Source: a virus. Taken from it: a DNA stretch of 36,937 nt. The stretch lies in IMG/VR virus record IMGVR_UViG_3300045988_048969, positions 1 through 36,937 of that record; one strand, written 5' to 3'. Positions 552-35,679 of the stretch are shown here, one piece after another. Positions within the stretch are counted from its first letter, which is position 1. Every line of letters starts with the position of its first letter. The position numbers and the translations under genes are program-made. Below the pieces are notes generated by a model. That model was given only the letters and a program-made list of their open reading frames with translations. It was not told the origin of the DNA and did no database searches.

Positions 552-618
552 CTTTCATGAATTATGCCTTTTTTTTATCCATTTTCTTGTGTATGATGTA
601 GAAAAAGAGGTGCAAGAA

Positions 619-1716
619 ATGGCAGTTAAAAAAGATGAAACAACAGGTAAATGGATGTATTATGGTTCATACAAATTGAATGGTAAAACCAAGCAATATA
701 AGAAGCGTGGTTTTGAAAAAAAGAAAGACGCTATAAAAGCAGAGATTATCTTCAAAGAAAATTTGAAAGAGCCAAACGCAACTATCACATTCAATGAACT
801 ATCTTATCAATATCAAGTATACTCGGAAAAGAGAATTAAGGAAAGCTCATACTTAACACAAAGAGCTATATTGAAAATTTGGGAAGATAGATTAGGCGAT
901 TGTGAAATAAGAAAGATTACAACAAGTGAAATTGAATCTGTAATAAATGAATTATTGGAATCAATGTCTTTTTCTACAATGGTAAATTGCTATGCAAAAT
1001 TTAGAGCGGTATTAAATTATGCAGTCAGACAAGGCTATATTCAAGTGAATCCATGTAATAAGATTGATTTAAAAAAAGACCCCAACGAAAAGAAAAAGGA
1101 AATGAAATATTGGACGGTAGAACAATTCAACAAATTTATTGTAAATGAAGAAAAAGAAGTGTTTCATTTGTTATTTACAAATCAATTCTACATGGGCATG
1201 AGAATAGGCGAAGCGTTGGCTCTGCAATGGAAAGATGTTGACCTTATTAATAACACTATAAAGATAAGCAAAACGTGGTCAAATGCTCTTAGAAAGGCTA
1301 CTACGCCTAAAACAAATAACAGTTATAGAACAATTACTATGCCACAATTCTTAGTTGATGAATACAAGACATTTAAAGAGAAGATACACGCAAATGCAGA
1401 TGATTATATTTTCGGAACTACACTACCGTTCTATGTGAATAGAGTACAAGACGAATTAAAGCGTGTAATAAAAAAAACAAATATCAAGCTACAAAAAGAT
1501 GAGCAGATACCTATTATTAGAACACATGATTTAAGGCACTCATGTGCAAGCTATATGATTAACAATATGGTTACAGATGGAATAGTGAATTTTTCTGTAT
1601 ACGATATTGCAAAAAGATTAGGCGATAACCTTGATACGGTGCTTTCAGTATACGCTCATTGGTTACCTCAAGCAGATAAAGGTATTGTACAATTTATGGA
1701 GAAAGACAAATTTTAG
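619..1716 (+). CDS. int: Tyrosine recombinase / phage integrase
   Basis: ATG 619 behind GAGGTG (track start GTG 589 has no SD). C-terminal HDLRHSCASY ... VYAHW catalytic-type motifs; position at the prophage edge. Confidence 0.9.
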   Translation: MAVKKDETTGKWMYYGSYKLNGKTKQYKKRGFEKKKDAIKAEIIFKENLKEPNATITFNELSYQYQVYSEKRIKESSYLTQRAILKIWEDRLGDCEIRKITTSEIESVINELLESMSFSTMVNCYAKFRAVLNYAVRQGYIQVNPCNKIDLKKDPNEKKKEMKYWTVEQFNKFIVNEEKEVFHLLFTNQFYMGMRIGEALALQWKDVDLINNTIKISKTWSNALRKATTPKTNNSYRTITMPQFLVDEYKTFKEKIHANADDYIFGTTLPFYVNRVQDELKRVIKKTNIKLQKDEQIPIIRTHDLRHSCASYMINNMVTDGIVNFSVYDIAKRLGDNLDTVLSVYAHWLPQADKGIVQFMEKDKF

Positions 1717-1941: not shown

Positions 1942-2548
1942 ATTGCAATGTAACTGAATTAACTGTTATAGGGTGAGAATGCATTCTATCCCAATTTATT
2001 CTCACATCAAAATTGTATACTTGACCATTTGATTCGGCTTGGGATTTAACTGTAAATATATCTTCTGCTCGTCTATAATACCATTCTGTATAATCAGAAA
2101 ATGTACATTGAGAACCTACTTTTTCATTAACTGCATTTTGAACAGTATCGACAAGAAATTCTCTATCAGAATCAACTATATATTGGTCGGGTATTTTTCT
2201 ATATACTTCTCCATTTTTGTATAGAATATAATCATCTTGAGTAACTAACTTAACCTTTCCTTTTTTAATCGTAGTTGTGTAGTAATTTTCATATAAGTAG
2301 CATGTAGTGATTACATTACCTTCGTGTCCTGTTACTGTTACAAGACTTTTTTTAACACCGAGCTTTTTCATTACTTTATACAAAGCTTTCATATCTTTTT
2401 TTGAGATTTTATATTTTTTTAAATCTTTTGCAGTAGTTTCATATTGTATATTATTATCCAAAGCATATACATTTACAGGCATAAATAAGCCTAAGCATAA
2501 TACAAATGCAATGACGATTGAATATCGTCTTTTTTTATTAATTTTCAT
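1940..2548 (-). CDS. Secreted protein of the lysogeny module (superinfection-exclusion or lysogenic-conversion candidate)
   Basis: Signal-peptide-like N-terminus MKINKKRRYSIVIAFVLCLGLFMPVNVYA; co-oriented with and overlapping the repressor gene. Confidence 0.6.
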   Translation of the reverse strand: MKINKKRRYSIVIAFVLCLGLFMPVNVYALDNNIQYETTAKDLKKYKISKKDMKALYKVMKKLGVKKSLVTVTGHEGNVITTCYLYENYYTTTIKKGKVKLVTQDDYILYKNGEVYRKIPDQYIVDSDREFLVDTVQNAVNEKVGSQCTFSDYTEWYYRRAEDIFTVKSQAESNGQVYNFDVRINWDRMHSHPITVNSVTLQ

Positions 2549-2909
2549 TGTCTAATTCCTTAATGATTCCATAAATGAAATCTAATAACCTTTCCTTTGT
2601 TTCTTCGCTTGATTTTAGATAAGCCTTAATAAGTGGCTTTTGGTTTGGGTTGATTTGGTATTCTTCTATGAGTTCGTCAATAGTGTTATCCGGTACATCT
2701 AAAAACATATCTCCAATACCTTCAGTAAGCCAAAAATAATCGGCATTAAATGTTCTACAGATGTTTTTAAGAATGTAATCATTCATATTTCTAACGCCAC
2801 TTTCATAACTTGCAACAGAATTTCTAGAAACACCAATTCTTGAACCAAACTCTGTTTGAGTTAAATTTAATGCATTCCTTAACTCTTTTACTCTTTCTCC
2901 TGTAGTCAA
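2538..2909 (-). CDS. XRE-family HTH repressor (cI-like), no S24 peptidase domain
   Basis: TTG start behind AAGGAGG on the minus strand. HTH LTQTEFGSRIGVSRNSVASYESG; divergent from the early operon. Confidence 0.85.
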   Translation of the reverse strand: MTTGERVKELRNALNLTQTEFGSRIGVSRNSVASYESGVRNMNDYILKNICRTFNADYFWLTEGIGDMFLDVPDNTIDELIEEYQINPNQKPLIKAYLKSSEETKERLLDFIYGIIKELDNEN

Positions 2910-3725: not shown

Positions 3726-4010
3726 ATGACAAACGAACAAATCATAAAAAATGAAAAGAAGTTATTAGGCATGGGAGAATTTGAACCATTGCATACATTC
3801 GCTAAATGGAAAGAAATGGGATTCAAAGTTAAAAAAGGTGAGCATGCTACAGTTTGCACAAAACTTTGGAAACGCAAATCAAAGAAAGTTGAATCAGTTG
3901 ATGGAAAAGAAGTTGAAGAAAACAATTTCTTCTTAGCAAAAGCTTTCTTATTTAAGCTAGACCAAGTTGAAAGAATTGAAACCAAAGGCAAACCACAATT
4001 AATGAATTAG
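3726..4010 (+). CDS. Early hypothetical protein (basic; FAKWKEMGFKVKKGEHA motif)
   Basis: ATG behind AAGGAGG; followed by a GAAA-tetraloop hairpin at 4014-4034. Confidence 0.6.
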   Translation: MTNEQIIKNEKKLLGMGEFEPLHTFAKWKEMGFKVKKGEHATVCTKLWKRKSKKVESVDGKEVEENNFFLAKAFLFKLDQVERIETKGKPQLMN

Positions 4011-7006: not shown

Positions 7007-7371
7007 AGTTTGTAATAAAAGGAAAGCTTGATGGGTTGAATGAATATATTAATGCTTGCAGAACGAATCGTTACAAAGGAGCAGAAATGAAGAAAAAGAA
7101 TGAGCGATTAGTTATGGCGTACATTCTTAGAGCAGTAAACTTTGGCGAAATTTACGAGGTTAAGAACTACCCAATTAGATTAAATATCAATTGGTATGAG
7201 CCAAATAACAAAAGAGATATAGACAATATCACATTCGCTACTAAATTCATTCAAGATTCATTAGTTAGAACAGGGATATTAGAAGATGATTCAAGGAAAT
7301 ACATTAATCAAGTGAATCATTCAGTATTTACAGATAAGGAGAATCCAAGGATAGAGGTAGAAATTATATGA
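7003..7371 (+). CDS. rusA: RusA-like Holliday junction resolvase, ATA start
   Basis: Frame opens after TAA 6979-6981 with no canonical start before TTG 7036. ATA 7003 lies 7 nt after GGAGG 6991-6995. N-terminus KFVIKGKLDGLNEYINACRTNRY is typical of Gram-positive phage RusA. Confidence 0.75.
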   Translation: MKFVIKGKLDGLNEYINACRTNRYKGAEMKKKNERLVMAYILRAVNFGEIYEVKNYPIRLNINWYEPNNKRDIDNITFATKFIQDSLVRTGILEDDSRKYINQVNHSVFTDKENPRIEVEII

Positions 7372-7713: not shown

Positions 7714-8502
7714 ATAGCAGTAATTAGAGTTATCAAGAACAGAAACTATACAGTGATGAGCAATACACATTTAAAAGATAAGCGCTTATCACTAAAAGCA
7801 ATAGGCTTGTTAAGTGTTGTTCTTAGCTTACCGGATGATTGGCATTATACAGTAAATGGGTTAGTTGGAATTGTAAAAGACGGTGAAAGAGCAGTAAATG
7901 GAGCATTATCTGAATTAAAGGAAAATGGATATTTAAGAATAGAAAAACTTTATCCAAATAAAGATGGAAGAAGTAAAATTGAATATCAATATATTTTCAG
8001 TGAAACGCCTCAAGACCTACAAAACGTACCTCTTGAGCAAGACATACAAAATGTAGGTCTACATAATGTAGGACTACAAGATGTAGGTTTACATAATGTA
8101 GGACTACAAGATGTAGGTTTACAAAATGTAGGTACTTATAAATATACTAATAAACCAAATACTAATAACAAAAATACTAATAACAAAGTAAGTAAACACA
8201 AATACGGTGAATATTCACACGTATTACTTACAGATAAAGAACACACACACCTATTAGATTTATATGGAGATTCATTAGATGAGCATATAAAGATATTAGA
8301 TGAGTACATTGAAACATCCGGAAAGAAATACAAAAACCATTCACTAGTGATTCAGAAGTGGGTTCATGATGAATGGTTGAAAAGAAATAAAGATAAGCCT
8401 ATCACACTTGATTCAAAGTTTTATGCAGAGCAAAACACAAAAACAGATAAAGAAGTACAAGATGAATTTAACAGGCTTAGAGCACAACTATTTGGAGCAT
8501 AG
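7714..8502 (+). CDS. Replication initiator / replisome organizer (winged-helix N-domain, DnaD-like C-domain)
   Basis: RNYTVMSNTHLKDKRLSLKAIGLLSVVLSLPDDW...LSELKENGYL. Probable ATA 7714 start 6 nt after GGAGGTG 7701-7707; alternatives TTG 7696 and GTG 7705 lack an SD. Confidence 0.7.
   Translation: MAVIRVIKNRNYTVMSNTHLKDKRLSLKAIGLLSVVLSLPDDWHYTVNGLVGIVKDGERAVNGALSELKENGYLRIEKLYPNKDGRSKIEYQYIFSETPQDLQNVPLEQDIQNVGLHNVGLQDVGLHNVGLQDVGLQNVGTYKYTNKPNTNNKNTNNKVSKHKYGEYSHVLLTDKEHTHLLDLYGDSLDEHIKILDEYIETSGKKYKNHSLVIQKWVHDEWLKRNKDKPITLDSKFYAEQNTKTDKEVQDEFNRLRAQLFGA
8019..8188. repeat. Putative origin: 15-bp iterons (core ATGTAGG) plus AT-rich 15-bp repeats inside the organizer gene
   Basis: Units at 8046, 8061, 8076, 8091, 8106 and 8121, plus a degenerate copy at 8019. 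8061-8090 is perfectly duplicated at 8091-8120. TACTAATAACA recurs with 15-bp period at 8160 and 8175. Confidence 0.6.
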
Positions 8503-10102: not shown

Positions 10103-10558
10103 ATGCCTAATTGGTGTGTAGGAACTTTAAGAGTAAGAGGTACAAAAGAGAATTTAACAAAATTTGTTTTAGAAGGATTACAACCGGTTACTTATATCGG
10201 CGAAGATTTAGAAGCGTTGAAGATGGATGATGATAATGGTCGTGTTAAATGTAGCAGATGCTGGATTAAAGGAACTCGCAGAGGATTTATTCTTGACTTA
10301 GATGAATTTATTTATGATTGGAACGATGAAGGAAAAATTGCAATTGGACTTGAAGCAGAATTCGCATGGGGTATTAGTTCGGAAGAACTATTAAATTCTT
10401 GTAAGCAATATGGAGTTGATATGAGAATTCATGCATTTGAATGTGGAATGTGCTTTAACCAAATTATTGAAATTATTGATGGAGAAATCACCAAGGATGA
10501 AGAAGTTAAATTCGATGATTATAACTGGGATTGTATTTGTCCGAATATAGGAGGATGA
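10103..10558 (+). CDS. Hypothetical protein (MPNWC N-terminus, DUF1281-like)
   Basis: ATG behind AAAGGAG; the family call rests on weak motif memory only. Confidence 0.5.
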   Translation: MPNWCVGTLRVRGTKENLTKFVLEGLQPVTYIGEDLEALKMDDDNGRVKCSRCWIKGTRRGFILDLDEFIYDWNDEGKIAIGLEAEFAWGISSEELLNSCKQYGVDMRIHAFECGMCFNQIIEIIDGEITKDEEVKFDDYNWDCICPNIGG

Positions 10559-13199: not shown

Positions 13200-13394
13200 A
13201 TAGAAATGAATTATGAAGAAAGGATTAAAGAGTTAATTTCTAAAAACAACAGACTAGGAAGGAAGAATATTGAATTGGAGCAGACTTTAAAAGAAAGAAA
13301 CGCAACAATTCATACTCAAGCTAAAGAAATTAAGAAATTAAGAAGTGAAGTTGGCGAATTAAAGGATAGATTGTATAAGGTATACAGTTCATGA
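13200..13394 (+). CDS. Coiled-coil hypothetical protein (start ambiguous: ATA 13200 or ATG 13206)
   Basis: AGGAGG 13186-13191 lies 8 nt before ATA 13200 and 14 nt before ATG 13206. Track GTG 13191 lies inside the SD. Confidence 0.5.
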   Translation: MEMNYEERIKELISKNNRLGRKNIELEQTLKERNATIHTQAKEIKKLRSEVGELKDRLYKVYSS

Positions 13395-13743: not shown

Positions 13744-13819
13744 AGCAGGATAGAGCAGTAGTAGCTCACTAGTCTTATTAGCTAGAGGTCGAATGGTGCA
13801 AATCCTTCTCCTGCAACCA
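13744..13819 (+). tRNA. tRNA, anticodon UAU (reads AUA), initiator-like identity elements, CCA encoded
   Basis: Hand-folded 76-nt cloverleaf. Acceptor AGCAGGA/TCCTGCA (A1xA72), D stem GAGC/GCTC, anticodon stem CTAGT/GCTAG, loop CTTATTA, variable AGGTC, T arm GAA(T)GG-TGCAAAT-CCTTC, then A73 and CCA. Confidence 0.7.
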
Positions 13820-13901
13820 TGTTTACAAAGCCTATCAGTAAGTCCTTCCCAAATTAGATGTTAAATACCAACAATGGCATACAATTAGGCTTTGATATAT
13901 T

Positions 13902-13926
13902 ACCGAGCGTTTGTCTCGGTTCTTTT
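13902..13926 (+). terminator. Rho-independent terminator downstream of the tRNA
   Basis: Stem ACCGAG(13902-13907)/CTCGGT(13915-13920), then TCTTTT. Confidence 0.5.
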
Positions 13927-13944
13927 AATAATAAGGAGGAGAAT

Positions 13945-14190
13945 ATGGGTTCAAAAGAATTTCAAGAATTAGCAATGAATGCAGTATTTCAAGTAAATCC
14001 AAATATTGCAATCAGTGAAATGTTCGTTGTATGGATGGTTAAAGTGCTTCAAAACAATAAAGCATTAATTAGTGCTAAGAGCACAGATAACTATTACGAA
14101 GTAACGTATAACGGCGATAAAAAGGAATTATACGTTGATGAATACATCAAGAATACAAATACCTGTCTAAATGTAAATGATGCTCTATGA
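13945..14190 (+). CDS. Hypothetical protein
   Basis: ATG 13945 behind AAGGAGG. Track start 13858 would read through the terminator hairpin and the SD. Confidence 0.6.
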   Translation: MGSKEFQELAMNAVFQVNPNIAISEMFVVWMVKVLQNNKALISAKSTDNYYEVTYNGDKKELYVDEYIKNTNTCLNVNDAL

Positions 14191-14210
14191 GCTTAAAAAA
14201 GGGGGATAAA

Positions 14211-14713
14211 ATGGAGATTATTAGATTAAAAATCAATGACATTACACCTTACGAAAAGAATGCAAAGATTCATACTGAAGCACAAATTGAACAAATTAAG
14301 AAATCTATTCAAGAATTTGGTATGAATGACCCAATCGCAGTATGGGGGGGAACAATACCATAGTTGAAGGTCATGGGCGATTAGAAGCTTTAAAGCAATT
14401 AGGCTATACAGAAGTTGACTGTATCAGACTAGACCATTTGACAGATGAAGAAAGAAAAGCTTATACACTTGCTCACAACAAAATCAATATGAATACAGGA
14501 TTCGACATTGATTTGTTAGACGAAGAATTAGACAGTATCGAAGATATTGATATGTCTGATTTTGGATTTACCGAGCAAGATATTGATTGGGATAATGTAG
14601 AAGATTTAAGTGATGATTCTTATGAAGAACCTCAACATGAAATGTGGAAATGCCCTCAGTGTGGACACGTAGATAGAAAAGAACACTTTAAAGGAGTTCG
14701 TGACAATGAATAA
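14211..14713 (+). pseudogene. ParB/Srx-like nuclease-domain protein with C-terminal zinc ribbon, frame broken at a G7 tract
   Basis: ATG 14211 behind GGGGGA. N-part INDITPYEKNAKIHTEAQIEQIKKSIQEFGMNDPIAVWGG stops at TAG 14361-14363. The continuation NNTIVEGHGRLEALKQLGYTEV... lies in the -1 frame; one extra G in G7 (14344-14350) restores a single ORF. Confidence 0.7.
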
Positions 14714-14725
14714 AACTATACCTAA

Positions 14726-15481
14726 TTGAAAATATTTCTAAGCGCATTAGAGGTGCAACGAGGTAAGAAATCATTATCAAGAATCTTAGTCGAGCAAGGC
14801 ATTCAAATGAAGTATAACCTTATGTCTTATTACTACCTAAGAAAGAATTTAAATGACGCATATTTCATAAAAGAGAACAGTCAATTAGTAATCATAGACA
14901 GTGGAGCGCATAGTTTCCAAAAGGGTACAAAAGTTGATTGGGTAGAATATACAAAACAATACGCAGAATTTATCAAAGAATTTGATGAGGACAAGGTTGT
15001 AGGATATTTTGAAATGGATGTAGACAACATCTTAGGCTATGAAAAGGTATTAGAGTTAAGAAAAATATTAGAATCTGTATCTGATAAGATTATTCCTGTA
15101 TGGCATAAGAACAGAGGAATACAAGACTTCAAAGATATGTGCAAGAAATATCAAGGTAAGGTTGTAGCAATTACAGGATTCAAGAATGAAGATATTAAAG
15201 ATGAACAATACATTATGTTCTTGAAATATGCAAAGAAATATAATTGCAAGGTTCATTGCCTTGGTATGACAAGAAAAAAAGTGCTTGATAGAGTGCCGTT
15301 TGATTATTGTGATTCAAGTACATGGGTACAACAATCAGTTTATGGGCGTATCAATGGGCTAGGCAAAGTATCAAGAGAAATGTCAAGAACAAATAGAGAA
15401 CAAGTAATGATAGAGAATTATAAGCAATTTATGCAAATGCAAGAAAAATATGAACAAAAATGGAGGAACGTGAATAAATAG
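14726..15481 (+). CDS. dpdA: DpdA-like (TGT-paralog) 7-deazaguanine DNA transglycosylase, putative
   Basis: MKIFLS..., IDSGAHSFQ (compare DSGGFQ), IPVWHK, VHCLGMT and CDSSTW follow the order of DpdA/TGT core motifs as I recall them. TTG start with no clear SD. Confidence 0.6.
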   Translation: MKIFLSALEVQRGKKSLSRILVEQGIQMKYNLMSYYYLRKNLNDAYFIKENSQLVIIDSGAHSFQKGTKVDWVEYTKQYAEFIKEFDEDKVVGYFEMDVDNILGYEKVLELRKILESVSDKIIPVWHKNRGIQDFKDMCKKYQGKVVAITGFKNEDIKDEQYIMFLKYAKKYNCKVHCLGMTRKKVLDRVPFDYCDSSTWVQQSVYGRINGLGKVSREMSRTNREQVMIENYKQFMQMQEKYEQKWRNVNK

Positions 15482-15929
15482 AAATAAGACGATAGCTTTT
15501 AATGCAGTAATGTGTGCATTGTATGTCGTAGCAACGACAATTAACCCAATCGGATATGGAGTATTTCAATTTAGGGTTAGTGAATTAATGACAGTATTTC
15601 CTGTTCATTTCAAAAAAGCACGTATCGGATTGCTTTTAGGAGTAGCAATTGCAAACGCAATGAGTCCATTGGGATTTATTGATGTATTCTGTGGAACATT
15701 AACGGCAGGATTGCTATATTACCTAATTGATAGACTACCGGTACACAATTACATTAAATACATTCTATATTCATTAGAAGTAGGATTAATTATCGGTTGG
15801 GAATTACAGTTGGTATATCATATGCCATTTGCATTAACATTCTTTACTACATTTATTCCGGAAATGATTCTATGTATTATCGGTGATTTATTAGCAAAGA
15901 AATTAAAGCATTATGTAAATATTGATTAG
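15474..15929 (+). CDS. queT: QueT-like queuosine-precursor transporter (ECF S-component), ATA start
   Basis: Multi-TM protein with AVMCALYVVATT...GYGVFQFRVSELMTVFP. Frame opens after TGA 15471-15473; ATA 15474 lies 6 nt after GGAGG 15463-15467. Track ATG 15510 removes the conserved N-terminus. Confidence 0.6.
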   Translation: MNRNKTIAFNAVMCALYVVATTINPIGYGVFQFRVSELMTVFPVHFKKARIGLLLGVAIANAMSPLGFIDVFCGTLTAGLLYYLIDRLPVHNYIKYILYSLEVGLIIGWELQLVYHMPFALTFFTTFIPEMILCIIGDLLAKKLKHYVNID

Positions 15930-15942
15930 AGGTGATAGACAC

Positions 15943-16311
15943 ATGGCAAGAAAAAAGTTTATTAATCAAAAACAGTTTGAAGCTTTATGTGAAATTCAAT
16001 GTACAAAAGAAGAAATTTGTTCCGTATTAGATGTATCAGAAAAAACATTGAATAATTGGTGTAAAGATACATACGGAGAAACTTTCTCCCTAGTTTTCGG
16101 TAAAAAAAGACAAGGAGGGTGCGCAAGCCTAAGAGCAAAGCAATGGAAACTAGCTTCAAAGAGTCCTGCTATGGCTATTTTCTTAGGTAAACAATTCCTA
16201 GGTCAGACTGATAAGGTAGAAACACATTTTGACGCTTCAGAAGTAAATGCAATTAATAAAGCTATGATTACAGATGTAGCAAAAGAAAGAAGAATTGAAG
16301 ATTTTGAATAA
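15943..16311 (+). CDS. terS: Terminase small subunit
   Basis: ATG 15943 behind AGAGGTGA. HTH TKEEICSVLDVSEKTLNNW and AIFLGKQFLGQTD; directly upstream of terL. Confidence 0.7.
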   Translation: MARKKFINQKQFEALCEIQCTKEEICSVLDVSEKTLNNWCKDTYGETFSLVFGKKRQGGCASLRAKQWKLASKSPAMAIFLGKQFLGQTDKVETHFDASEVNAINKAMITDVAKERRIEDFE

Positions 16312-17629
16312 GCCTGCGCCTTTCAATCAAAAGCAATTAACTTATCTTAAAAGAACATTTGATTCATGGCTTAATGTATTAGAAGGTGGAAAGCGTGGAG
16401 GAAAGAACGTACTCAACACATACGCTTTCTGTATTGCACTAGAAACACATCCGGATAAATTCCATTTGATAGCAGGAACAGATACATCATCTGCACGTGT
16501 TAATATTGGAGATTGTAATGGATATGGTTTGCAAAACTACTTTGCTAATAGATTCAAAGTAGGGAAGTATGAAGGTAAAGACTGCTACTACATCAATACA
16601 AAGGTTGGTGAAAAGGTTGTTTTCTTTGCCGGTGGTGCTAAAAAAGGCTCAGAGAATGCAATACATGGTTATTCATATGGAATGGCATATGTAACAGAAG
16701 CAAACCTTTGTTGCATTGAGTTTCTACAAGAAGTGATGGATAGAACGATAGCGTCAAGCAATCGAAAGATATTTCATGATTTAAACCCAAAAGGAAAGAA
16801 TCATTGGTATTACACAGATTTCTTGAAATATCATGAGGAGCAACAGAATAAAGATTCTACATATGGTTATAACTATGGGCATACCACCTTAGTTGACAAT
16901 TATTCTTTAAGTGATGAGCAGATAAGAACGGTCTTGAAATCATACGATAAGAATAGCGTTTATTACAAAAGAGATATAAAAGGACAAAGGGAAGAAGCCG
17001 AAGGACTTGTATTCCCTTATTTTGCTAATGACTGCAAACCTTACCTATTCAAGTATCAACATTTAAAAGAGAAGATGGCAGAAGAAAGAAAAAGATTCAG
17101 TCATTTAATCATAGGCGTTGACTTTGGAGACAATGGTTCGAAATATTCATGGCACTTAACAGGGTTTACAAATGATTGGGATTATATGTGGGCACTTGAT
17201 GAAGGAGACATGGCGAAGTCAAACTCAATTGACGCAACAAAGTTCTGCAAAGCGTTTGTAAGGTTCTATAAGCGTTGTATTGAATGTTATGGGTATGTAG
17301 AATGGATATTTCCGGACAGTGCTTCTAATACGTTGATAAACACGCTTAGAGCTTATTTTTACGCCGAAGGATTAGACGGAAGTATAATTGCACCGGTAAA
17401 GAAGAATGAGCTAACAGACCGTCCTATAACGGTTGATAGCTTACTTGTTACAGGTAGGTTAAAGATAGAGGAGCATTGTAAGAATTTAATAAACGCATTG
17501 AGCGAATTAGTATGGGATGAGAAGAAAGACATTCCAAAAGATGAGAACGTTCACAATATCAATGATGATTGGGATTCGTTCTGCTATACATTTATAACCC
17601 ATAGTGGATATATAGATTTAAGGAGGTAA
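16295..17629 (+). CDS. terL: Terminase large subunit (PBSX-like)
   Basis: 444 aa, P-loop-like GGKRGGKN, positioned between terS and portal. Confidence 0.8.
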   Translation: MKILNKPAPFNQKQLTYLKRTFDSWLNVLEGGKRGGKNVLNTYAFCIALETHPDKFHLIAGTDTSSARVNIGDCNGYGLQNYFANRFKVGKYEGKDCYYINTKVGEKVVFFAGGAKKGSENAIHGYSYGMAYVTEANLCCIEFLQEVMDRTIASSNRKIFHDLNPKGKNHWYYTDFLKYHEEQQNKDSTYGYNYGHTTLVDNYSLSDEQIRTVLKSYDKNSVYYKRDIKGQREEAEGLVFPYFANDCKPYLFKYQHLKEKMAEERKRFSHLIIGVDFGDNGSKYSWHLTGFTNDWDYMWALDEGDMAKSNSIDATKFCKAFVRFYKRCIECYGYVEWIFPDSASNTLINTLRAYFYAEGLDGSIIAPVKKNELTDRPITVDSLLVTGRLKIEEHCKNLINALSELVWDEKKDIPKDENVHNINDDWDSFCYTFITHSGYIDLRR

Positions 17630-17632
17630 GAA

Positions 17633-19036
17633 ATAGAAACATCTAACACACGTAGACCGTGGTTTCAAAACTACCTTAACGAAAGAGGGTATTATGTAGA
17701 TACAAACGCAATTGAGATTATTGAATTGTGTAATAAGTGGTATACAAATACCGAAACAGAATTTCATACGGCATACACCTTGAATAACGAGGAATACACG
17801 CTAGATAAAACAGACTTTGCAAAACGTTTGTGCGAGGATGACGCAAACTTAATTGAAATTCTAGATATAAACGCAACTGAGGACAGTACAACAAATGACA
17901 TTATTTCAGACATTCTAACGAAGAATAGATTTGATGTTATGTATAGGAAGCAAGTTGAGCAAATGTCTGCAAACGGCACAGTAGGAGCTTATGTAACGGT
18001 ATCAAATGCCGAGATTTATGAAGATGGTACATTCAGTGGAGGTGAGATTAGAATCAACTATTGTGATTCAATGAATATACTTCCATTAACTGTTATCAAT
18101 GATGAAATTGTGGAAGTTGCTTTCGTTGGAGTAAATTATGAGAAACTGAAGAAAGTATATGTGATGGTCATGTTCTTAAAAGGGCAAGACGAAAGATATA
18201 TTGCAGAAACACATTACTTTAAAGAAACAGGCGAAGAAATAAAAGAGCGTGCTCAGATTGTTCAATTAGATGTGGTTAAGCCGTTTGCAATTATGAGAAA
18301 TGCAAAGGTCAACAACTTACAAATGCAAGGGTACGGCTTACCTAAAATTTGGAGCGCAATCGCTCCACTAAAAACAATTGATTTAACAATGACAATGTGG
18401 AATCGAGATTTATTGAAATCGGATAAAATCGTTCTTGTGAATGAAGCATTAATGCAGAAAGACGAGAATGGAAAGATTAATATGAATCCACAAATGAAAA
18501 AGATATTCGTTCAGTTAGGTAGAGACAAGTTACCGGAAGAAAAAGCTTTATGGCAGGAATACAATCCAACAGTTAGAACACAAGAAGTTGTACAATCACT
18601 AGAAACGGCATTGAGCATATTATCAATGATGTTTGGATTTGGCACGAAGAAATACACATTTGAGAGTGGAAGAATTGTGACGGCAACAGAATATATCGGT
18701 GAGAATCAAGACGCAATGAAGGAAGTAAATTCACAACGTAAAGAATCTACGGCTTATATTCAAGATATTATTCAAGCAATAGCGTACTTCTATGAGTTAA
18801 CACAAGGCAGAAAGCTTAATATCAATTCATTAGACATTGCTATTGATTATGACGACACATACATTGAGGATAAGCAAAGCACGGCACAAGCGTTAAGAAA
18901 TGACGCATTAACATTTGATATTCCAAGATTAAAAATCATGTACTTCATGAAACAGTATGGATTCACTGAAGAAGAAGCAACGGAATTATTAAACGAAGAA
19001 ATTCAAGATGATGGAGAGGGGGATGACGAAGAATAG
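17633..19036 (+). CDS. Portal protein (SPP1 gp6-like), ATA start
   Basis: Frame opens after TAA 17627-17629. ATA 17633 lies 6 nt after AGGAGG 17621-17626; the next canonical start is TTG 17726, 31 codons downstream. Confidence 0.75.
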   Translation: METSNTRRPWFQNYLNERGYYVDTNAIEIIELCNKWYTNTETEFHTAYTLNNEEYTLDKTDFAKRLCEDDANLIEILDINATEDSTTNDIISDILTKNRFDVMYRKQVEQMSANGTVGAYVTVSNAEIYEDGTFSGGEIRINYCDSMNILPLTVINDEIVEVAFVGVNYEKLKKVYVMVMFLKGQDERYIAETHYFKETGEEIKERAQIVQLDVVKPFAIMRNAKVNNLQMQGYGLPKIWSAIAPLKTIDLTMTMWNRDLLKSDKIVLVNEALMQKDENGKINMNPQMKKIFVQLGRDKLPEEKALWQEYNPTVRTQEVVQSLETALSILSMMFGFGTKKYTFESGRIVTATEYIGENQDAMKEVNSQRKESTAYIQDIIQAIAYFYELTQGRKLNINSLDIAIDYDDTYIEDKQSTAQALRNDALTFDIPRLKIMYFMKQYGFTEEEATELLNEEIQDDGEGDDEE

Positions 19037-20475: not shown

Positions 20476-21084
20476 ATAGCTATTGAATATTTAGATAAGA
20501 GTGGATTGACGCTCTTAATCAGTAAAATTAAATCGGCGTTAGGTGGGAAAGTTGATGTTGAAATTGGTAAAGGCTTATCAACAAATGACTACACAAGCGC
20601 AGAAAAACAAAAGTTAAGTGGTATCGCAAATGGTGCTCAAGTGAACGTGATTGAGTCGGTAAAGGTAAATGGTACGAAGCTAACGCCAAGCTCAAAAGCC
20701 GTAGATGTTACAGTACCGACAAAGACATCGCAATTAACGAATGACAGTGGGTATCAGACAAAAGCAAATGTAGACTCAATCGTTACAGGTAAAGGATATC
20801 AAACGCAATCACAAGTACAATCATTGATTAATTCGGCAGTAGGTAATATTACATCTATTAGATATGAAAAGGTAACGAGCTTACCTGCTACAGGTTCAAA
20901 TGGTGTTATCTATTTGGTAGCACATTCACATGGAACGCAAGATATTTATGATGAATATATTTGGCTTTCAGAAACAAAAACATATGAAAAGATTGGTAAT
21001 ACAGACATTGATTTATCTGCGTATGTTAAGAAGTCAGAATTAACTGCGATTACTACAAACGATTTAAACACAATGTGGGGTTAG
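20476..21084 (+). CDS. Fibre protein (LSTNDYTSAEKQKL repeat type), ATA start
   Basis: Frame opens after TAG 20455-20457. ATA 20476 lies 7 nt after AGGAGG 20463-20468. N-terminus AIEYLDKSGLTLLISKIK precedes track TTG 20506. Confidence 0.65.
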   Translation: MAIEYLDKSGLTLLISKIKSALGGKVDVEIGKGLSTNDYTSAEKQKLSGIANGAQVNVIESVKVNGTKLTPSSKAVDVTVPTKTSQLTNDSGYQTKANVDSIVTGKGYQTQSQVQSLINSAVGNITSIRYEKVTSLPATGSNGVIYLVAHSHGTQDIYDEYIWLSETKTYEKIGNTDIDLSAYVKKSELTAITTNDLNTMWG

Positions 21085-24593: not shown

Positions 24594-25463
24594 ATACCAA
24601 ATGAAATTGCATTAGCTAAAACGTATGTCTCAAATTTGGATGAGGTATATAAGTTAGCTTCAGTTACAGGTGATTTAAACGCAAACGCTACAATGGTACG
24701 AGCAGGAGCAAACGCAAAAGAAATCATCTATCCACAAATTTCTGTTAAAGGTTTAGGAAACTACGATAGAAACAGTGGTTATACAGGTAACTCAGTTAAG
24801 TTAGAATGGAAAACTGCTACATTCGACTATGATAGAGGAACTAAAATCTCAGTTGATACACAAGATAACGCAGAATCAATGAATATTGCATTCGGCATGG
24901 CAGGAGCAGAATTAATGCGTACAAAGGTTGCACCGGAAGCAGACGCTTACACATTCGCTAAGATTGCCGGCACAACAGGAATCACAAAGGTTTCAGAAGA
25001 TTATACAGGTGCAGAAGAGTTCTTGAGTGCATTATTAACGGCTATCACTAAAATGGATGAGGGTGAAGTTCCTAGCGAACAACGTATCTTATATTCAACA
25101 CCAACATTATTAAATAGCGTTAAAGCATTAGATACATACAAATCACGTGAAGCTTTACAAGGATTTGCAAAAATTGTTCCTGTACCTTCAACACGATTCT
25201 ATACAAAAATTAAATTGTTGAGTGGAAAAGATACAGAGTTAGAGGGCGGATACGAAAAGGCAGAGGATGGACACGCAATCAACTTCTTAATTGTTCACAA
25301 ACCTGCCGTAATGAAATGGGATAAACACACTGTTTCAAATGTGATTCCTGCAAGCAATAACATCGAATCAGATTCAGATGTATTGAAATATCGTAAATAT
25401 GGAATCGTTGATGTATACCAAAATAAGGTAGCAGGTATTTACTTATCTGCTAGTGCTAAGTAA
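24594..25463 (+). CDS. Major capsid protein, ATA start
   Basis: Frame opens after TAA 24588-24590. ATA 24594 lies 9 nt after AAGGAGG 24578-24584. N-terminus PNEIALAKTYVSNLDEVYK is typical of this capsid type and precedes track TTG 24636. Confidence 0.75.
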   Translation: MPNEIALAKTYVSNLDEVYKLASVTGDLNANATMVRAGANAKEIIYPQISVKGLGNYDRNSGYTGNSVKLEWKTATFDYDRGTKISVDTQDNAESMNIAFGMAGAELMRTKVAPEADAYTFAKIAGTTGITKVSEDYTGAEEFLSALLTAITKMDEGEVPSEQRILYSTPTLLNSVKALDTYKSREALQGFAKIVPVPSTRFYTKIKLLSGKDTELEGGYEKAEDGHAINFLIVHKPAVMKWDKHTVSNVIPASNNIESDSDVLKYRKYGIVDVYQNKVAGIYLSASAK

Positions 25464-25935: not shown

Positions 25936-26351
25936 TAGGTTTCTTTGAAGATTCAATTACACTTGTAAATCACTACTATGACACATTGACAAGAGAAGAT
26001 AGATTTGAAGTTTCTATTCTTGATAAATGTATGTGGAGACAATCGACTGTTAGAACGGCGAACGGTAATATTCTGAGCATAGCCACATCCACAAATATTA
26101 CCATTCTATATCGTGAAGGATATGTTGAACCTTACGCATATGCGAAACTTTCAAATGATGAGAAACAAAAGCACTTCACATTAAATACAGATAAGACAGA
26201 TTTTGTATTCTTTGGAGAAGTAAAAGAAGACTTATCTAGTATTAAATCAATCAACGAAGCAAAAAAGAAATACAAATGGACAACCGTTCAAAGCGTAACA
26301 GATTGTACTAATGTCGATATGTTGAAGCATTGGGAGGTTGTTGGTCAATAG
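25932..26351 (+). CDS. Head-closure / head-tail joining protein
   Basis: ATG 25932 with ATGA overlap. Confidence 0.5.
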   Translation: MIGFFEDSITLVNHYYDTLTREDRFEVSILDKCMWRQSTVRTANGNILSIATSTNITILYREGYVEPYAYAKLSNDEKQKHFTLNTDKTDFVFFGEVKEDLSSIKSINEAKKKYKWTTVQSVTDCTNVDMLKHWEVVGQ

Positions 26352-26710: not shown

Positions 26711-27126
26711 CAGTATCAAAAGCGTTGATTCAATGGCTTTATGGCTACGGAAATATACAGATAGATGAACGTATTGAAACGGATGTTTTAGCGCAACAAG
26801 CTATCTCTTATGCGTTGTATAAAGAACCTAACGCAATTGTAGATACATACATTGACGGCTCTCAAATGCGTACAGAATACTACACGTTTCTAGCACGTAG
26901 GAATACACAAATTGAATCAGAAAGACAAGATAACAATGTTTTTCTAGAAGAATTAGAAAATTGGATTGACGAAAAGAATTTAAGTGGGGAATTACCACAA
27001 CTAGACGGAAACAGACATTGTGATGATGTTTCCGTTTCAAGTGGTTTATATCTATACACAAATGAGGATAATCAAGCAGTATATGCGTTGACTATTCAAA
27101 TTAAATACAGAAAGGAGCTTAATTAA
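26707..27126 (+). CDS. Tail completion protein
   Basis: ATGA overlap behind AGGAGG; position. Confidence 0.5.
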   Translation: MTVSKALIQWLYGYGNIQIDERIETDVLAQQAISYALYKEPNAIVDTYIDGSQMRTEYYTFLARRNTQIESERQDNNVFLEELENWIDEKNLSGELPQLDGNRHCDDVSVSSGLYLYTNEDNQAVYALTIQIKYRKELN

Positions 27127-28593: not shown

Positions 28594-31173
28594 ATATCAG
28601 ACGGAACATTAAAGTTTGATACAAAGATTGATACAAGTGGTCTAGAGAATGGAATGAAATCCGTTCATGAAGTCACAAGTGGAGCTACAAATGCAATTAA
28701 GGAAACTTCAAAAGCAATCGACAAGTTAGGTTCTGATGGTTCAAAAGCACCACCAAAGATTAGAGATAAACTTAAAGATTTAAATGATGAGCAAAAGAAT
28801 ACACAAACAGAAACACAAGAAACAGGTTCTAAATTTGATGTATTTAAACAAGTAGGAAACAGTGCCTTAGAGTCAATTCAAGGTGGATTTGATGGATTGC
28901 TAGAGAAGATTCAGAATATTAGTCCGGAAGCTACTGCAATCACTGAAACCTTAACAGGATTAGGCGTAGGAGGTGTTGTAGGCGTTACTGCCGTAGCAGG
29001 AGCTATTGGTGGTATGGCATTAGCAATTAAGACAGGTGTCAATCAAGCTACAGAACTAGATGACGCTATGGCTAAATTCCAAGCTCAGACAGGTGCTTCA
29101 AGTAATGAAATGAGCAAATTTAAAAACATTGCTCGTGATGTTTGGTCAAACAATTTCGGTGAAGATGTTTCAGATGTTGCCGATATGATGGGCAGAGTCA
29201 AGCAACAAATGCAAGGCATAAGTGATGTTGACCTAAAGAACGTGACAGAGGATTTATTAACTTTAAGAGATACATTCGATATGGATGAGAATGAAACTCT
29301 TAGAGGTGCTCAACAATTAATGAAGCAGTTCGGAATCACTTCTCAAGAAGCTTTCGACCTTATGGCTACAGGTGCTCAGAATGGTTTAAACAAATCAGAT
29401 GAGCTAGGCGACAACATTTCAGAATACTCCGGTAAATTCGCACAAGCAGGATATTCGGCAGATGAATATTTCCAATTAATGCAGAATGGATTAGATGGTG
29501 GAGCTTATAACCTTGATAAAGTAAATGACGCAATCAACGAAGTTACCACAAGGTTAGTTGATGGAACTATTGAAGGAGCTTTAGATAGTTTTGATACCAA
29601 GACGCAAGATGTCTTTAAAGCTTGGCAAGAAGGAAGAGCAACTCAGAAAGATGTTGTAAATGCGATTGTAGAAGATATTTCAAAGACTACAAATGAACAA
29701 GAAAAGTTGAATAAATCTGCAACGGCTTTCGGCACAATGGGAGAAGATTTCAACGCCGGATTCATTCAGTCCTTAACGACAGTAGGGAATAAATATAAAG
29801 ATGTAGAAGGGGCAATGGATAAAGTCAAAGAAATTGCAAATGGTGGCTTAAAGAACGCTTTAAGTGGCTTAGGGCGTGCATTTCTTGATTCATTTACTCC
29901 AATAGGCGAACTTATTACCCCTATTCTTGCAGGTATCATCGGATTAATTACAGTAGCTATACAAGGTATTCAACAAGGATTTGCTAAAGTTGGTGATGTA
30001 ATTTCAAATGTATTAAGCAAGATTGATACAAGTGGAATTACAGAATTGACAAGTCAAGTTTCAGAGGTGTTAGCTCCTGCTTTTGATGAGGTCAGAAAAG
30101 CGATTGACGAAATGAAAGTTGCACTTGAACCTATTGCAAAAGAAATTTTAAGCAAGATAGGCAGTGCAATTCAAAATGTAGTAAACCAAGCTCAAAAGAT
30201 TCTTAGCGTTGTAGGACCACCGATTCTAGCAATCATTAAGAAGATTATTCAAACAGTTATCGGTATGACTCCTGTAATAACATCTATTCTTCAAGTAGTT
30301 GGAAGTGTGGTAAGTGGAATCATTTCATTTATAACTATGGTTGTGACGTATGTAGGAACTGCAATTGCAACAATACTAGGATTTATCATGCCTATTGTTC
30401 AAATTGTAGCTACAATTGTAGCGAATATTTGGTCTGTAATATTAACGGTTGCTCAGAATATTTGGAGCAAAGTTAGCGAAGTAGTTACTGCTATTATTGG
30501 ATTCGTAAGCAATTTATTTAAGACGGTTTCGGACATCATAAACAAAATTTGGAGTAAGATTCAAGATTCCATGAACAAGGTAAGAGACAAGGTTCAAGGT
30601 GTTATTGATAATATTAATAAATATTTCAATAATGTTAAGAGTACTGTTTCTGATGTATTTAATGGCATTTGGTCTAAAGTTCAAGGTGTAATGGATAATG
30701 TAGGAAATAAAATTTCAAATGTTTTACAAGGAATACAGAATGCATGGAGCGGTTTAAAAGGGTTTGTAGGTGGTGTATTCGGTGGAATTGAAGGAGCAGT
30801 AGGTTCATTAGTCTCTAGTGTAAAAGGAATGGTAAATGGTGTTATCGGTGGCATTAACGGTGCAATCGGTATCATCAATAAGATTCCCGGAGTGCACATT
30901 GGAAGGATTCCTAGACTAGAGCGTGGTGGTGTATTAAAACGTGGTCAAATCGGTTTATTAGAAGGTAATGGAGCAGAAGCAGTCGTACCTTTAGAAAAAA
31001 ATAAAGCGTGGATTCGTGCCGTAGCTAAAGATATGGCTCAAATCATGCCTAGCGTTACGACAAATAACAATGGACAGACTATCAACTTCTACAATAAAGC
31101 TCAAAGTCCGGATGAAATCGCTAGAATGTTGCGAATGCAAGCAAGATATGGATATGGAGGTGTTGTTCAATAG
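28594..31173 (+). CDS. Tape measure protein, ATA start
   Basis: Frame opens after TGA 28591-28593. ATA 28594 follows AAGGAGGTGG 28576-28585. N-terminus SDGTLKFDTKIDTSGLENG is typical of TMPs; long Gly/hydrophobic and IWSK repeat region. Confidence 0.8.
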   Translation: MSDGTLKFDTKIDTSGLENGMKSVHEVTSGATNAIKETSKAIDKLGSDGSKAPPKIRDKLKDLNDEQKNTQTETQETGSKFDVFKQVGNSALESIQGGFDGLLEKIQNISPEATAITETLTGLGVGGVVGVTAVAGAIGGMALAIKTGVNQATELDDAMAKFQAQTGASSNEMSKFKNIARDVWSNNFGEDVSDVADMMGRVKQQMQGISDVDLKNVTEDLLTLRDTFDMDENETLRGAQQLMKQFGITSQEAFDLMATGAQNGLNKSDELGDNISEYSGKFAQAGYSADEYFQLMQNGLDGGAYNLDKVNDAINEVTTRLVDGTIEGALDSFDTKTQDVFKAWQEGRATQKDVVNAIVEDISKTTNEQEKLNKSATAFGTMGEDFNAGFIQSLTTVGNKYKDVEGAMDKVKEIANGGLKNALSGLGRAFLDSFTPIGELITPILAGIIGLITVAIQGIQQGFAKVGDVISNVLSKIDTSGITELTSQVSEVLAPAFDEVRKAIDEMKVALEPIAKEILSKIGSAIQNVVNQAQKILSVVGPPILAIIKKIIQTVIGMTPVITSILQVVGSVVSGIISFITMVVTYVGTAIATILGFIMPIVQIVATIVANIWSVILTVAQNIWSKVSEVVTAIIGFVSNLFKTVSDIINKIWSKIQDSMNKVRDKVQGVIDNINKYFNNVKSTVSDVFNGIWSKVQGVMDNVGNKISNVLQGIQNAWSGLKGFVGGVFGGIEGAVGSLVSSVKGMVNGVIGGINGAIGIINKIPGVHIGRIPRLERGGVLKRGQIGLLEGNGAEAVVPLEKNKAWIRAVAKDMAQIMPSVTTNNNGQTINFYNKAQSPDEIARMLRMQARYGYGGVVQ

Positions 31174-35259: not shown

Positions 35260-35679
35260 ATGATTAATAGTATAGCAACGGCAGTACAAACAGTAGCGAA
35301 TGGACAAAATGTATTATTTCCAACGGACAGAGTAAGAACGAAATCTTGTCAATGTGCATGTAAAGGTTGGCTTGCTCATGATGTAGGAAGTGGATTGTTT
35401 ACATTGACAAAACAAGGAATTTATGAAGTAGAATATACGGCAGATATTACAAGCACAACGGTAGGAGTAGCTTCTTTAGAATTAGAACAGAATGGAGAAG
35501 CAGTAGGAGGAACAGAATCTTTATATAATGTAGCTACTGCAAGCGCATATGGAAATGTAAGTGGAGCTACATTGATTCAAGTACCTTGTGGAGCTTCTTA
35601 CACGATTACACTAGGAAATAACAGTGGCTTAGATTTATCTGTTCAAAATGCAAATATCATCATTAAGAAATTAGCGTAG
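35260..35679 (+). CDS. BclA-C-terminal-domain-like (C1q/TNF-like jelly-roll) protein without collagen repeats
   Basis: FTLTKQGIYEVEYTADI...LELEQNGEAVGGTES...NANIIIKKLA resembles, from memory, the Bacillus exosporium BclA / ExsFA C-terminal domain. Confidence 0.45.
   Translation: MINSIATAVQTVANGQNVLFPTDRVRTKSCQCACKGWLAHDVGSGLFTLTKQGIYEVEYTADITSTTVGVASLELEQNGEAVGGTESLYNVATASAYGNVSGATLIQVPCGASYTITLGNNSGLDLSVQNANIIIKKLA

Follow-up and report, generated by a model that had tools for sequence, protein, structure and literature searches.

Phages with a DpdA-type DNA-guanine transglycosylase have been described with several kinds of gene neighbourhood. In Streptococcus phage Dp-1 the gene belongs to the cluster QueF-QueC-QueD-QueE-FolE-QueT-DpdA, and about 1.7% of the G in virion DNA is found as dPreQ1, the deoxynucleoside of the 7-deazaguanine base preQ1 (PMC6884629). 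In the Rosebush-type phages of cluster B, represented by Qyrzula, a ParB-like gene is followed by DpdA, QueC, QueD, QueE, FolE and terL; in Rosebush DNA, 28% of G is present as dPreQ0. Phage CAjan carries synthesis genes together with the transporter gene YhhQ and DpdA. The DpdA-only phages (group 3, 76 phages) have no genes for the synthesis of preQ0 or archaeosine (G+), and reliance on host preQ0 or on uptake has already been proposed for them, some phages encoding YhhQ (PMC6884629). In that study (Hutinet et al., 2019), YhhQ was not correlated with any phage group and QueT was outside the search set (PMC6884629). In bacteria, the DpdA/DpdB/DpdC system of Salmonella Montevideo (PDB 7UI4) combines a triosephosphate isomerase (TIM) barrel transglycosylase, for which the set Asp95/Asp130/His181/Asp256 was shown by mutagenesis and crystallography, with a ParB-fold NTPase partner (PMC10164549). 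Here, the 36,937-nucleotide (nt) DNA of the IMG/VR virus record IMGVR_UViG_3300045988_048969, in the following called the window, was analysed with respect to a unit of a ParB-like gene, a predicted dpdA gene and a predicted queT gene that directly precedes the terminase genes (Table 1).

We interpret the unit as a module for the 7-deazaguanine modification of DNA that is fed by salvage and opens the late (packaging) operon of a temperate, siphovirus-like phage infecting gut Bacillota/Clostridia; this reading is regarded as fairly probable. According to it, QueT would be placed in the host membrane and use the shared energising module of the host energy-coupling factor (ECF) transporters to import a queuosine precursor. 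Most likely this would be preQ1 or preQ0, the substrates shared by both importer families discussed below; characterised members of the QueT family differ in substrate (PMC11130926). DpdA would excise guanine from replicated phage DNA and insert the imported base, the base exchange of tRNA-guanine transglycosylases (TGT) and DpdA being a double-displacement reaction (PMC10164549). By analogy with DpdB, the ParB-like, presumably nucleoside triphosphate (NTP)-binding protein with its GHGRLEA box would probably load DpdA on the DNA or assist it there; a link between ParB-like proteins and DpdB in phages has been suggested before (PMC6392294). The modified genome would then be packaged by the terminase encoded just downstream and would be shielded from host restriction, as protection from restriction was shown for CAjan, 9g and Iggy (PMC6884629, PMC10484667).

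The first-pass annotation had described the open reading frame (ORF) 14726-15481 as TGT/DpdA-like on the basis of five core motifs, all of which were recovered in the order given there (MKIFLS at residues 1-6, IDSGAHSFQ at 57-65, IPVWHK at 123-128, VHCLGMT at 176-182 and CDSSTW at 195-200). The start codon is TTG, the first codon after a TAA. The identity is borne out by significant matches to profiles of phage DpdAs, a TIM-barrel model and a retained catalytic set. The protein matches phrog_887, named 'queuine tRNA-ribosyltransferase', with an E-value of 4.7e-39, and in a tblastn search 69 phage records were matched, including CAjan (24.5% identity, E 3e-6), Seurat, BCD7, BcepGomr and phiFN37. 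When an alignment of 42 homologues (28-74% identity) was compared by hhalign with an alignment of validated-type DpdAs from CAjan, 9g, Iggy, Dp-1, Qyrzula and BCD7, a probability of 99.9% and an E-value of 2.9e-32 were obtained over 198 columns, and the motifs DSGA, ELD, VWH, HxLG and DSSxW were lined up. Seven residues are invariant across the 42 homologues (D58, S59, G60, E96, D98, H127, D196), four of which (D58, D98, H127 and D196) align with the invariant D63, D105, H132 and D206 of the validated DpdAs and appear by alignment to mirror Asp95, Asp130, His181 and Asp256 of the S. Montevideo enzyme. By the same alignment the role of nucleophile would fall to D196, that of general acid/base to D58, and base recognition to D98 together with H127.

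The proposed structure prediction was carried out with AlphaFold2 and yielded a TIM barrel of eight beta/alpha units with a mean local confidence (pLDDT) of 94.5 and a predicted template modelling score (pTM) of 0.92. Foldseek searches with this model against BFVD gave 32 matches at E <= 1e-3, the majority of them to phage proteins. All matches that bear a name are phage 'queuine tRNA-ribosyltransferases', the greater part of the remainder has no functional name, and one is the uncharacterised protein R9TGF0 of Vibrio phage nt-1, which is probably the DpdA2 of PMC6884629. The family is large: 1,583 proteins were found at E <= 1e-3 by an exhaustive search of 50%-identity representatives and 1,584 by a word-indexed search, and none of the approximately 1,583 homologues carries a name or a precomputed Pfam domain. 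Within the window clade, dpdA evolves with a ratio of non-synonymous to synonymous differences per site (pN/pS) of 0.04-0.1. Judged from sequence and model, the ORF is a member of the DpdA family.

For the survey of related loci, sequences were collected from Logan/ENA, from metagenome-assembled genomes in GTDB (Acutalibacteraceae, Lachnospiraceae, Anaerobutyricum and other Clostridia) and from 54 IMG/VR contigs. The ParB-like gene is located directly upstream of DpdA in 60 of the 65 loci. Likewise in 60 of 65 loci a transporter gene follows directly downstream, which belongs to YhhQ/Vut_1 (PF02592) in 49 cases and to QueT in 11 others. Of the five loci left, four either lack sequence downstream of DpdA or were not inspected on that side, and in the fifth, L052, terS and terL come directly after DpdA. 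The unit thus consists of three genes, ParB-like, DpdA and transporter, in conserved order, and the first-pass annotation has to be amended where it called the module a minimal one of two genes, since the ParB-like gene is a conserved third member that is frameshifted in the window. In a neighbour-joining tree of DpdA, the QueT-bearing loci are found in at least four places among the YhhQ-bearing ones, and the window clade is nested among YhhQ carriers; the transporter in this slot has thus been exchanged no fewer than four times. As a non-orthologous importer replacement recurs within one and the same slot, there is strong evidence that import of a queuosine precursor for DpdA is what is selected. 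QPTR/YhhQ and QueT/QrtT are the only known families of queuosine-precursor transporters (PMC11130926), which supports a salvage-fed DNA modification just before packaging; furthermore, gut Bacillota mostly lack QueDECF and depend on salvaged queuosine (Q) precursors (PMC11130926). In contrast to the survey of Hutinet et al. (2019), the importer is fixed beside DpdA here and alternates between two families. Within the clade of 98% identity, purifying selection acts on all three genes of the unit (pN/pS <= 0.1).

No genes for QueC, QueD, QueE, QueF or FolE were found in the window by Pfam scan or phmmer, in agreement with the first-pass annotation. The Pfam scan covered the plus-strand ORFs of at least 50 amino acids, with the exception of the tape-measure ORF (28654-31173), and three minus-strand genes. 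Every open frame of at least 40 amino acids in the window and in about 65 related loci, with flanks of up to 10 kb, was searched with the enzymes of Dp-1 and CAjan using phmmer, and none of these enzymes was detected. The statement of the earlier annotation that DpdA is usually accompanied by folE and queCDE turned out to be overstated, as the DpdA-only phages outnumber every other group in PMC6884629. Among the window genes, the Pfam scans likewise revealed no ECF energising module (EcfA/A'/T).

Some loci deviate from the plain three-gene order. In L025 (3367-4899) and L046 (4581-6086), DpdA and YhhQ are separated by genes for a short-chain dehydrogenase/reductase (adh_short) and for an unknown protein of about 278 amino acids, which may tailor the base into another 7-deazaguanine derivative. 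Two chimeric proteins were encountered in Logan, one in which DpdA residues 29-148 are joined to QueT at 'ATTINPIGYG' (P0272) and one in which ParB residues 1-50 are joined to QueT at 'PIGYG' (P0273). Both joints share a microhomology of the CCAATCG type (window positions ~14331 and ~15545), and the proteins represent either deletion variants removing DpdA or assembly chimeras. In the QueT-type relative L056, the Rfam small RNA 'salivarius-1' (RF03030, 72.8 bits) was detected at 7308-7364 on the plus strand, about 2.7 kb upstream of the ParB-DpdA-QueT module.

The ParB-like gene probably starts at the ATG at 14211, following AAGGGGGA. Its 3' part contains a GxxRxxA-type box (GHGRLEA, within EGHGRLEA) and an acidic C-terminus with CxxC. 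The two parts are separated by a tract of seven G residues (G7), and a tract of eight (G8) restores a single ORF of 175 amino acids, whose product matches phrog_620 in one stretch with an E-value of 7e-53. G7 was found in the window and in the independent assembly L004, G8 in L063 and L067, and GGGGTAAA in L014 and L015; in the latter four loci the gene is intact. Between the window and L004, both halves together differ by 12 synonymous and no non-synonymous changes, so that the gene is not decaying. This points to G7 being a switching or phase state, a site of programmed slippage, or a homopolymer error. Relatives of the protein match ParB_N (PF02195), and in PADLOC it matches just the ParB-like N-terminus of a type II methyltransferase. 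A ParB/Srx-type N-terminal NTP-binding domain encoded next to dpdA is shared with DpdB.

The predicted transporter gene was assigned to QueT in the first-pass annotation, and this assignment could be verified with PF06177, which covers profile positions 1-140 of 141 with 97.8 bits (E 8.7e-28; cut-off 33.7 bits) when the protein is read from 15474. Read from the ATG at 15510, the protein scores only 93.6 bits. The frame is open from 15474, which is an ATA directly after an in-frame TGA (15471-73), and 15510 is the position of the first ATG, GTG or TTG. The earlier coordinates of QueT and its overlap of 8 nt with dpdA consequently hold if ATA 15474 is the start. Upstream, a seven-codon leader in the QueT frame lies inside the 3' end of dpdA; it contains the Shine-Dalgarno (SD) sequence GGAGGA (15462-15467), and the ATA follows 6-7 nt after it. 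Two relatives, L073 and L074, have an uninterrupted QueT frame from the ATG that corresponds to window position 15450. In the window clade, a G that is synonymous in the overlapping dpdA frame turns codon 8 into TGA, and the ATA at the position of 15474 is kept in all lineages, L073 and L074 included. Hydrophobic segments of QueT comprise residues 5-28, 50-85 and 117-142, with a weaker one at about 95-113. The hydrophobic core of the first transmembrane helix (TM1) spans residues 5-24 and includes an AxxxA motif (AVMCA, 11-15), a motif whose role in helix 1 is known from work on ThiT and RibU.

Comparison of queT between the window and L004, both carriers of the TGA, revealed 18 synonymous and one non-synonymous change (pS 0.18, pN 0.003), and no non-synonymous change is located in the 12 codons between 15474 and 15510. 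A classification of queT as a pseudogene due to the TGA at codon 8 was therefore rejected, in view of the strong purifying selection after the TGA and the conserved ATA. A start at ATG 15510 was rejected as well: it has no SD sequence, cuts TM1 and the AxxxA motif and loses Pfam positions 1-7. Because of the purifying selection after the TGA, the unchanged stretch 15474-15510, the conservation of the ATA and the SD spacing, the sequences imply that translation of QueT must start at ATA 15474.

The genome was searched for further ATA starts in a scan for long ORFs that are headed by a strong SD site with a start-like codon behind it. For about 14 genes, including those of portal, tape measure, holin and endolysin (Table 1), ATA is the sole SD-served start near the head of the open frame; the gene starting at 24594, probably the major capsid gene, has no family match. 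The CHAP domain of the endolysin is detected only with the ATA extension, and its catalytic motif GAQCWDG, which holds the catalytic Cys, precedes the first canonical start. Homologues of the portal protein align from residue 11-15 of the ATA-started protein, the first canonical start of which is at residue 32. ATA start codons are conserved in the clade members at 68-99% protein identity, and in outgroup orthologues the aligned codon is ATG (RusA in L001 and L002, the gene at 7714 in L008). Among internal codons ATA accounts for 1.3%. In loci with the UAU tRNA described below, the ratio of SD-served ATA to ATG starts is 25:56, versus 62:532 in loci without it; for ATA against control codons in loci with versus without the tRNA, an odds ratio of 7.7 was obtained (Fisher p = 4e-8). 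Standard ORF callers truncate the ATA-started genes.

A tRNA gene separates the ArpU-like regulator ORF from the late operon; its anticodon loop CUUAUUA gives the anticodon UAU with U37. Orthologues are present in L014 (9016-9088), L015 (9275-9347), L063 (9275-9347), L067 (7928-8002) and L074 (547-621), and a variant in L106. Those of L067 and L074 are called tRNA-Ile(tat) by ARAGORN, which misses the window copy due to its odd T arm. A pattern scan of IMG/VR gave 48 stretches, 47 of which were extracted; this tRNA is present in about 35 of the latter, and the contigs concerned are mostly 20-40 kb long. The tRNA is 67-75% identical to the E. coli initiator metZ, compared with 49-54% to elongator Met and Ile tRNAs, and it shares with initiators the A1xA72 mismatch, A11:U24, G2:C71, C3:G70, the variable loop AGGUC and the GCAACCA end. 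The lack of a Watson-Crick 1:72 pair extends to all clade variants (A1xA72) and to L106, which has the canonical mismatch C1xA72. The D stem is GAGC/GCUC as in metZ, in contrast to GCUC/GAGC in all compared elongators.

Some features speak against an initiator. The anticodon is not CAU, U37 is unusual, and the T arm of the window copy has G55 and a bulged U. Moreover, of the three G:C pairs of the initiator anticodon stem only G30:C40 is kept in the window variant. In L067, L074 and the UCGGU variants G29:C41 and G30:C40 are kept with U31.G39 as the third pair, and some variants (UCGGU/GCCGA) are one pair away from the initiator stem UCGGG/CCCGA; two compensatory pair changes were found in this stem between the variants. 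An ordinary role as a decoder of AUA was rejected based on the 1.3% share of ATA among internal codons and on the true elongator tRNA-Ile(UAU) of the related locus L046, which is quite different (G1:C72, C11:G24, A37). Taken from these sequence features, it is about as plausible as not that QueT and approximately 13 other genes are translated from AUA by a phage tRNA of the initiator type with an anticodon altered from CAU to UAU; as an alternative, the host initiator may read AUA weakly, helped by the strong SD sites. Engineered initiator tRNAs initiate at the codon matching their new anticodon, and a full-text literature search yielded such engineered tRNAs and no natural phage example. Unlike these, the tRNA described here is natural, phage-encoded and paired with many ATA-start genes. 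In related phages (L001 at 10475-10546, L009, L013, L046 and others), other tRNAs are found near the DpdA module, namely Arg-GCG, Met-CAU, Cys-ACA, Gln-UUG, Arg-ACG, Lys-UUU and elongator Ile-UAU; none of these has a GUN anticodon.

Several observations weigh against a DNA-modification module. The search with hidden Markov models that had been proposed as a check was successful for phrog_887 and PF06177, but the predicted DpdA matched neither Pfam TGT (PF01702) nor NCBIfam nor the DpdA models of PADLOC. In PDB sequences, only noise was obtained with the single sequence (phmmer) and with the 42-sequence profile (hmmsearch), and Foldseek against PDB returned generic TIM barrels only, neither a TGT nor 7UI4 being among the top 50 and no match scoring below E 1e-3. 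The zinc site of TGT and bacterial DpdA, a Cys cluster and a His after the nucleophile, is absent: cysteines are located only at 139, 174, 178 and 195, and as neither Cys nor His follows D196, the zinc subdomain is missing. In the window itself, the ParB-like gene has no intact reading frame due to the G7 frameshift, and its product lacks the traits of the DndB-like subgroup that includes DpdB, namely the DGQQR motif and an SspE-like helical domain at the C-terminus. Finally, of the two DpdA-only phages studied by liquid chromatography-mass spectrometry (LC-MS), mycobacteriophage Orion was unmodified and phage 7-11 had 0.02% of its Gs as dADG (PMC6884629). As a further caveat, YhhQ is dispensable in CAjan owing to the presence of synthesis genes (PMC7544227). 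Regarding the curated models, however, the validated CAjan DpdA is likewise without a match in Pfam or PDB sequences and the Dp-1 DpdA without a Pfam match; the negatives are therefore a property of phage DpdAs rather than counter-evidence. The validated phage DpdAs also have no invariant Cys, and judged by the alignments the missing zinc site separates the window protein from TGT and bacterial DpdA, not from phage DpdA1. Because the DGQQR motif is lacking, the ParB-like protein is no orthologue of DpdB and would be an analogue at best.

An alternative that combines two of these points holds that the module is silent in the window genome, the ParB-like helper being frameshifted and the DNA packaged unmodified as in Orion, or, in a weaker version, that modification is phase-variable. 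We consider it unlikely. It would agree with G7 splitting the gene in the window and L004 while close relatives have G8 or no such tract, and with the dependence of bacterial DpdA on the ParB-fold ATPase DpdB (PMC10164549). The 12 synonymous and no non-synonymous changes between the two G7 genomes, however, show the gene to be still selected, purifying selection acts on DpdA and QueT, both of which are intact, and the plasmid-borne DpdA of phage 9g alone put dPreQ0 into E. coli plasmid DNA in the absence of DpdB (PMC6884629). An action on RNA or host metabolism, by which an increased queuosine-type tRNA modification would tune translation and leave the DNA untouched, is judged decidedly improbable. 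The window protein groups with the DNA-modifying DpdA1 of CAjan, 9g, Dp-1 and Iggy (hhalign probability 99.9%), no tRNA-TGT profile or structure was matched, the zinc/C-terminal subdomain is lacking, the conserved partner is a ParB-type DNA-binding protein and the neighbours are terminase genes. This stands against membership in the TGT superfamily, the name 'queuine tRNA-ribosyltransferase' in annotations, and the boost of Q production proposed for phages with preQ0 genes but without DpdA (PMC6884629). The tRNA gene 0.9 kb upstream could also be brought forward for an RNA target, but its anticodon is UAU and not the GUN of Q-modified tRNAs.

The transporter could also be a lysogenic-conversion gene whose precursor uptake benefits the lysogen, its adjacency to DpdA being incidental. 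Such a benefit would suit a temperate phage with integrase and cI-like repressor in gut Bacillota that rely on salvaged Q precursors (PMC11130926), but QueT is embedded in the late operon between an 8-nt overlap with dpdA and a 13-nt gap to terS, and no separate promoter or terminator stood out for it. The transporter slot is kept beside DpdA in 60 of 65 loci although the family changes, and the ATA start would tie QueT to the same initiation regime as structural and lysis genes. Lysogenic conversion is therefore regarded as very improbable. With respect to all these alternatives, a salvage-fed modification of phage DNA remains the preferred reading.

Compared with the described systems, Dp-1 resembles the window in having a phage QueT directly beside DpdA; the annotated QueT of Dp-1 is 33% identical to that of the window and the DpdAs are homologous. 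Unlike the window phage, Dp-1 is virulent and makes its own preQ1, its order is QueT then DpdA, its DpdA has 311 amino acids, it has no ParB-like gene, and its cluster is not a neighbour of the terminase but part of the early/replication region. The Rosebush type shares the ParB-like gene immediately upstream of DpdA, where its ORF1 was earlier suggested as a DpdB homologue (PMC6392294), and the place of the unit next to the terminase; it differs in being biosynthesis-fed, without a transporter, with a DpdA of 376 amino acids and with actinobacterial hosts. With the DpdA-only phages, the window has the absence of preQ0 and G+ synthesis genes in common. The closest DpdA of an isolated phage is that of Fusobacterium phage phiFN37 (L003; 35% identity), which shares the order ParB-DpdA-importer and, over the 12.6 kb examined, the absence of synthesis genes, but has a genome of 85 kb, YhhQ as importer and an extra DUF6884 gene between DpdA and YhhQ. 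The DUF6884 protein (L003 6805-7239) has weak similarity to YaaA/DUF328, the family to which DpdC is assigned, and a ParB-DpdA-DpdC-like-importer set would predict dADG in phiFN37.

With the bacterial Dpd system, the window shares the predicted TIM-barrel transglycosylase with three Asp and one His and a ParB-fold NTPase partner. It is distinguished from it by the lack of any sequence or Foldseek match to 7UI4, of the zinc site, of Ins8, of DGQQR in the ParB partner and of the restriction components DpdC-K, and its role would be offensive (phage) instead of defensive. In summary, DpdA-only phages with the uptake idea (PMC6884629), phage YhhQ (PMC6884629, PMC7544227), QueT beside DpdA in Dp-1 and a ParB-like neighbour of DpdA in cluster B mycobacteriophages (PMC6392294) have already been published. 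New are the populous gut-phage family with an importer replacing synthesis, the fixed order ParB-DpdA-importer, the repeated exchange of YhhQ and QueT, and the compact DpdA without a zinc site.

The window represents a temperate siphovirus-like phage genome with a G + C content of about 33%. Besides the features in Table 1 it encodes, in order, ERF recombinase, dUTPase and a single-stranded DNA-binding protein, followed by terS, terL, minor capsid protein, scaffold, distal tail protein (Dit), a Gp37-like tail protein, holin and CHAP endolysin. The frame of the DUF6275 gene is open from 13858, and the ATG at 13945 is the SD-served start with AAGGAGG 5 nt before. The terS ORF spans 15922-16311 and probably starts with the ATG at 15943, 7 nt downstream of the SD sequence GAGGTGA. 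As had been noted at first pass, the module is placed directly upstream of terS, with terS and terL following QueT without a gap. The ParB-like stop codon lies 12 nt before dpdA. In view of this tight packing and the position downstream of the ArpU-like ORF and the tRNA gene, the ParB-like gene, DpdA and QueT are probably transcribed together with the packaging genes. A scan for promoters and terminators gave nothing above shuffle background that would subdivide the operon, and an Rfam scan of the window found no preQ1 riboswitch. Recoding of TGA as a sense codon was rejected, since the ORFs are intact under code 11. No match to GenBank phages, and hence no closely related isolate, was obtained by megablast of 13800-17700 and 16295-36937; matches in GTDB are prophage contigs in Clostridia metagenome-assembled genomes and are merely 48-65% identical.

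Table 1. Predicted features of the window, with the genes starting at ATA given by their start position.
Feature	Position	Strand	Remarks
Integrase	589-1716		Basis for the temperate label together with the repressor
cI-like helix-turn-helix repressor	2538-2909	-	
RusA	7003	+	ATA start
Gene at 7714	7714	+	ATA start
Gene at 13200	13200	+	ATA start
tRNA gene, anticodon UAU	13744-13819	+	Rfam RF00005, 48.8 bits (13744-13816; encoded CCA through 13819)
DUF6275 protein	13945-14190	+	First ORF of the operon; PF19791, E 2.8e-24
ParB-like gene, 5' part	14211-14363	+	Premature end at G7; phrog_620 positions 5-50
ParB-like gene, 3' part	14342-14713	+	Frame -1 relative to 5' part; phrog_620 positions 53-177, E 3.7e-32
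Poly-G tract (G7)	14344-14350		Splits the ParB-like gene
Predicted DpdA-type DNA-guanine transglycosylase	14726-15481	+	Compact, 251 amino acids, without zinc subdomain
Leader ORF, ATG...TGA	15450-15473	+	Seven codons in the QueT frame, inside the dpdA 3' end
QueT, predicted ECF-type S component for queuosine precursors	15474-15929	+	151 amino acids when read from ATA
terS, small terminase subunit	15943-16311	+	phrog_309 and phrog_606
terL, large terminase subunit	16295-17629	+	PF04466 and PF03237
Portal	17633	+	ATA start
Gene at 20476	20476	+	ATA start
Probable major capsid	24594	+	ATA start
Gene at 26348	26348	+	ATA start
Gene at 27126	27126	+	ATA start
Tape measure	28594	+	ATA start
Dit	31170	+	ATA start
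Holin	33067	+	ATA start
Endolysin	36176	+	ATA start

Two further ORFs on the plus strand gave Pfam matches. ORF 3726-4010 in the early region encodes 94 amino acids with a weak match to the N-terminal domain of ArdC (PF08401, E 8.6e-5) and is possibly a second anti-restriction function, as far as this similarity indicates. ORF 35260-35679 (139 amino acids), which lies after the holin region and before that of the endolysin, matches the C-terminal (C1q/TNF-like) domain of BclA below the threshold (PF18573, E 2.1e-8, 34.5 bits versus a cut-off of 38).

Since 2019, the DpdA-only phages have been the largest DpdA class and one without a clear source of substrate, for which an importer encoded beside DpdA offers a testable answer. 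Salvage-fed DNA hypermodification can thereby be tested in phages of gut Clostridia. As the ParB-like neighbour is conserved, phage DpdAs may use a ParB-fold helper like bacterial DpdA. In the model, anti-restriction of the phage is linked to the queuosine precursors shared in the community, a micronutrient which gut Bacillota have to scavenge. If the AUA-start pattern is real, it would be a natural reassignment of a start codon by a virus and would explain the systematic mis-annotation of starts in such phages. Such a system would be the initiation-side counterpart of the stop-codon recoding in gut phages, and with a private start codon, the modification, importer, structural and lysis genes would be translatable only when the phage tRNA is expressed.

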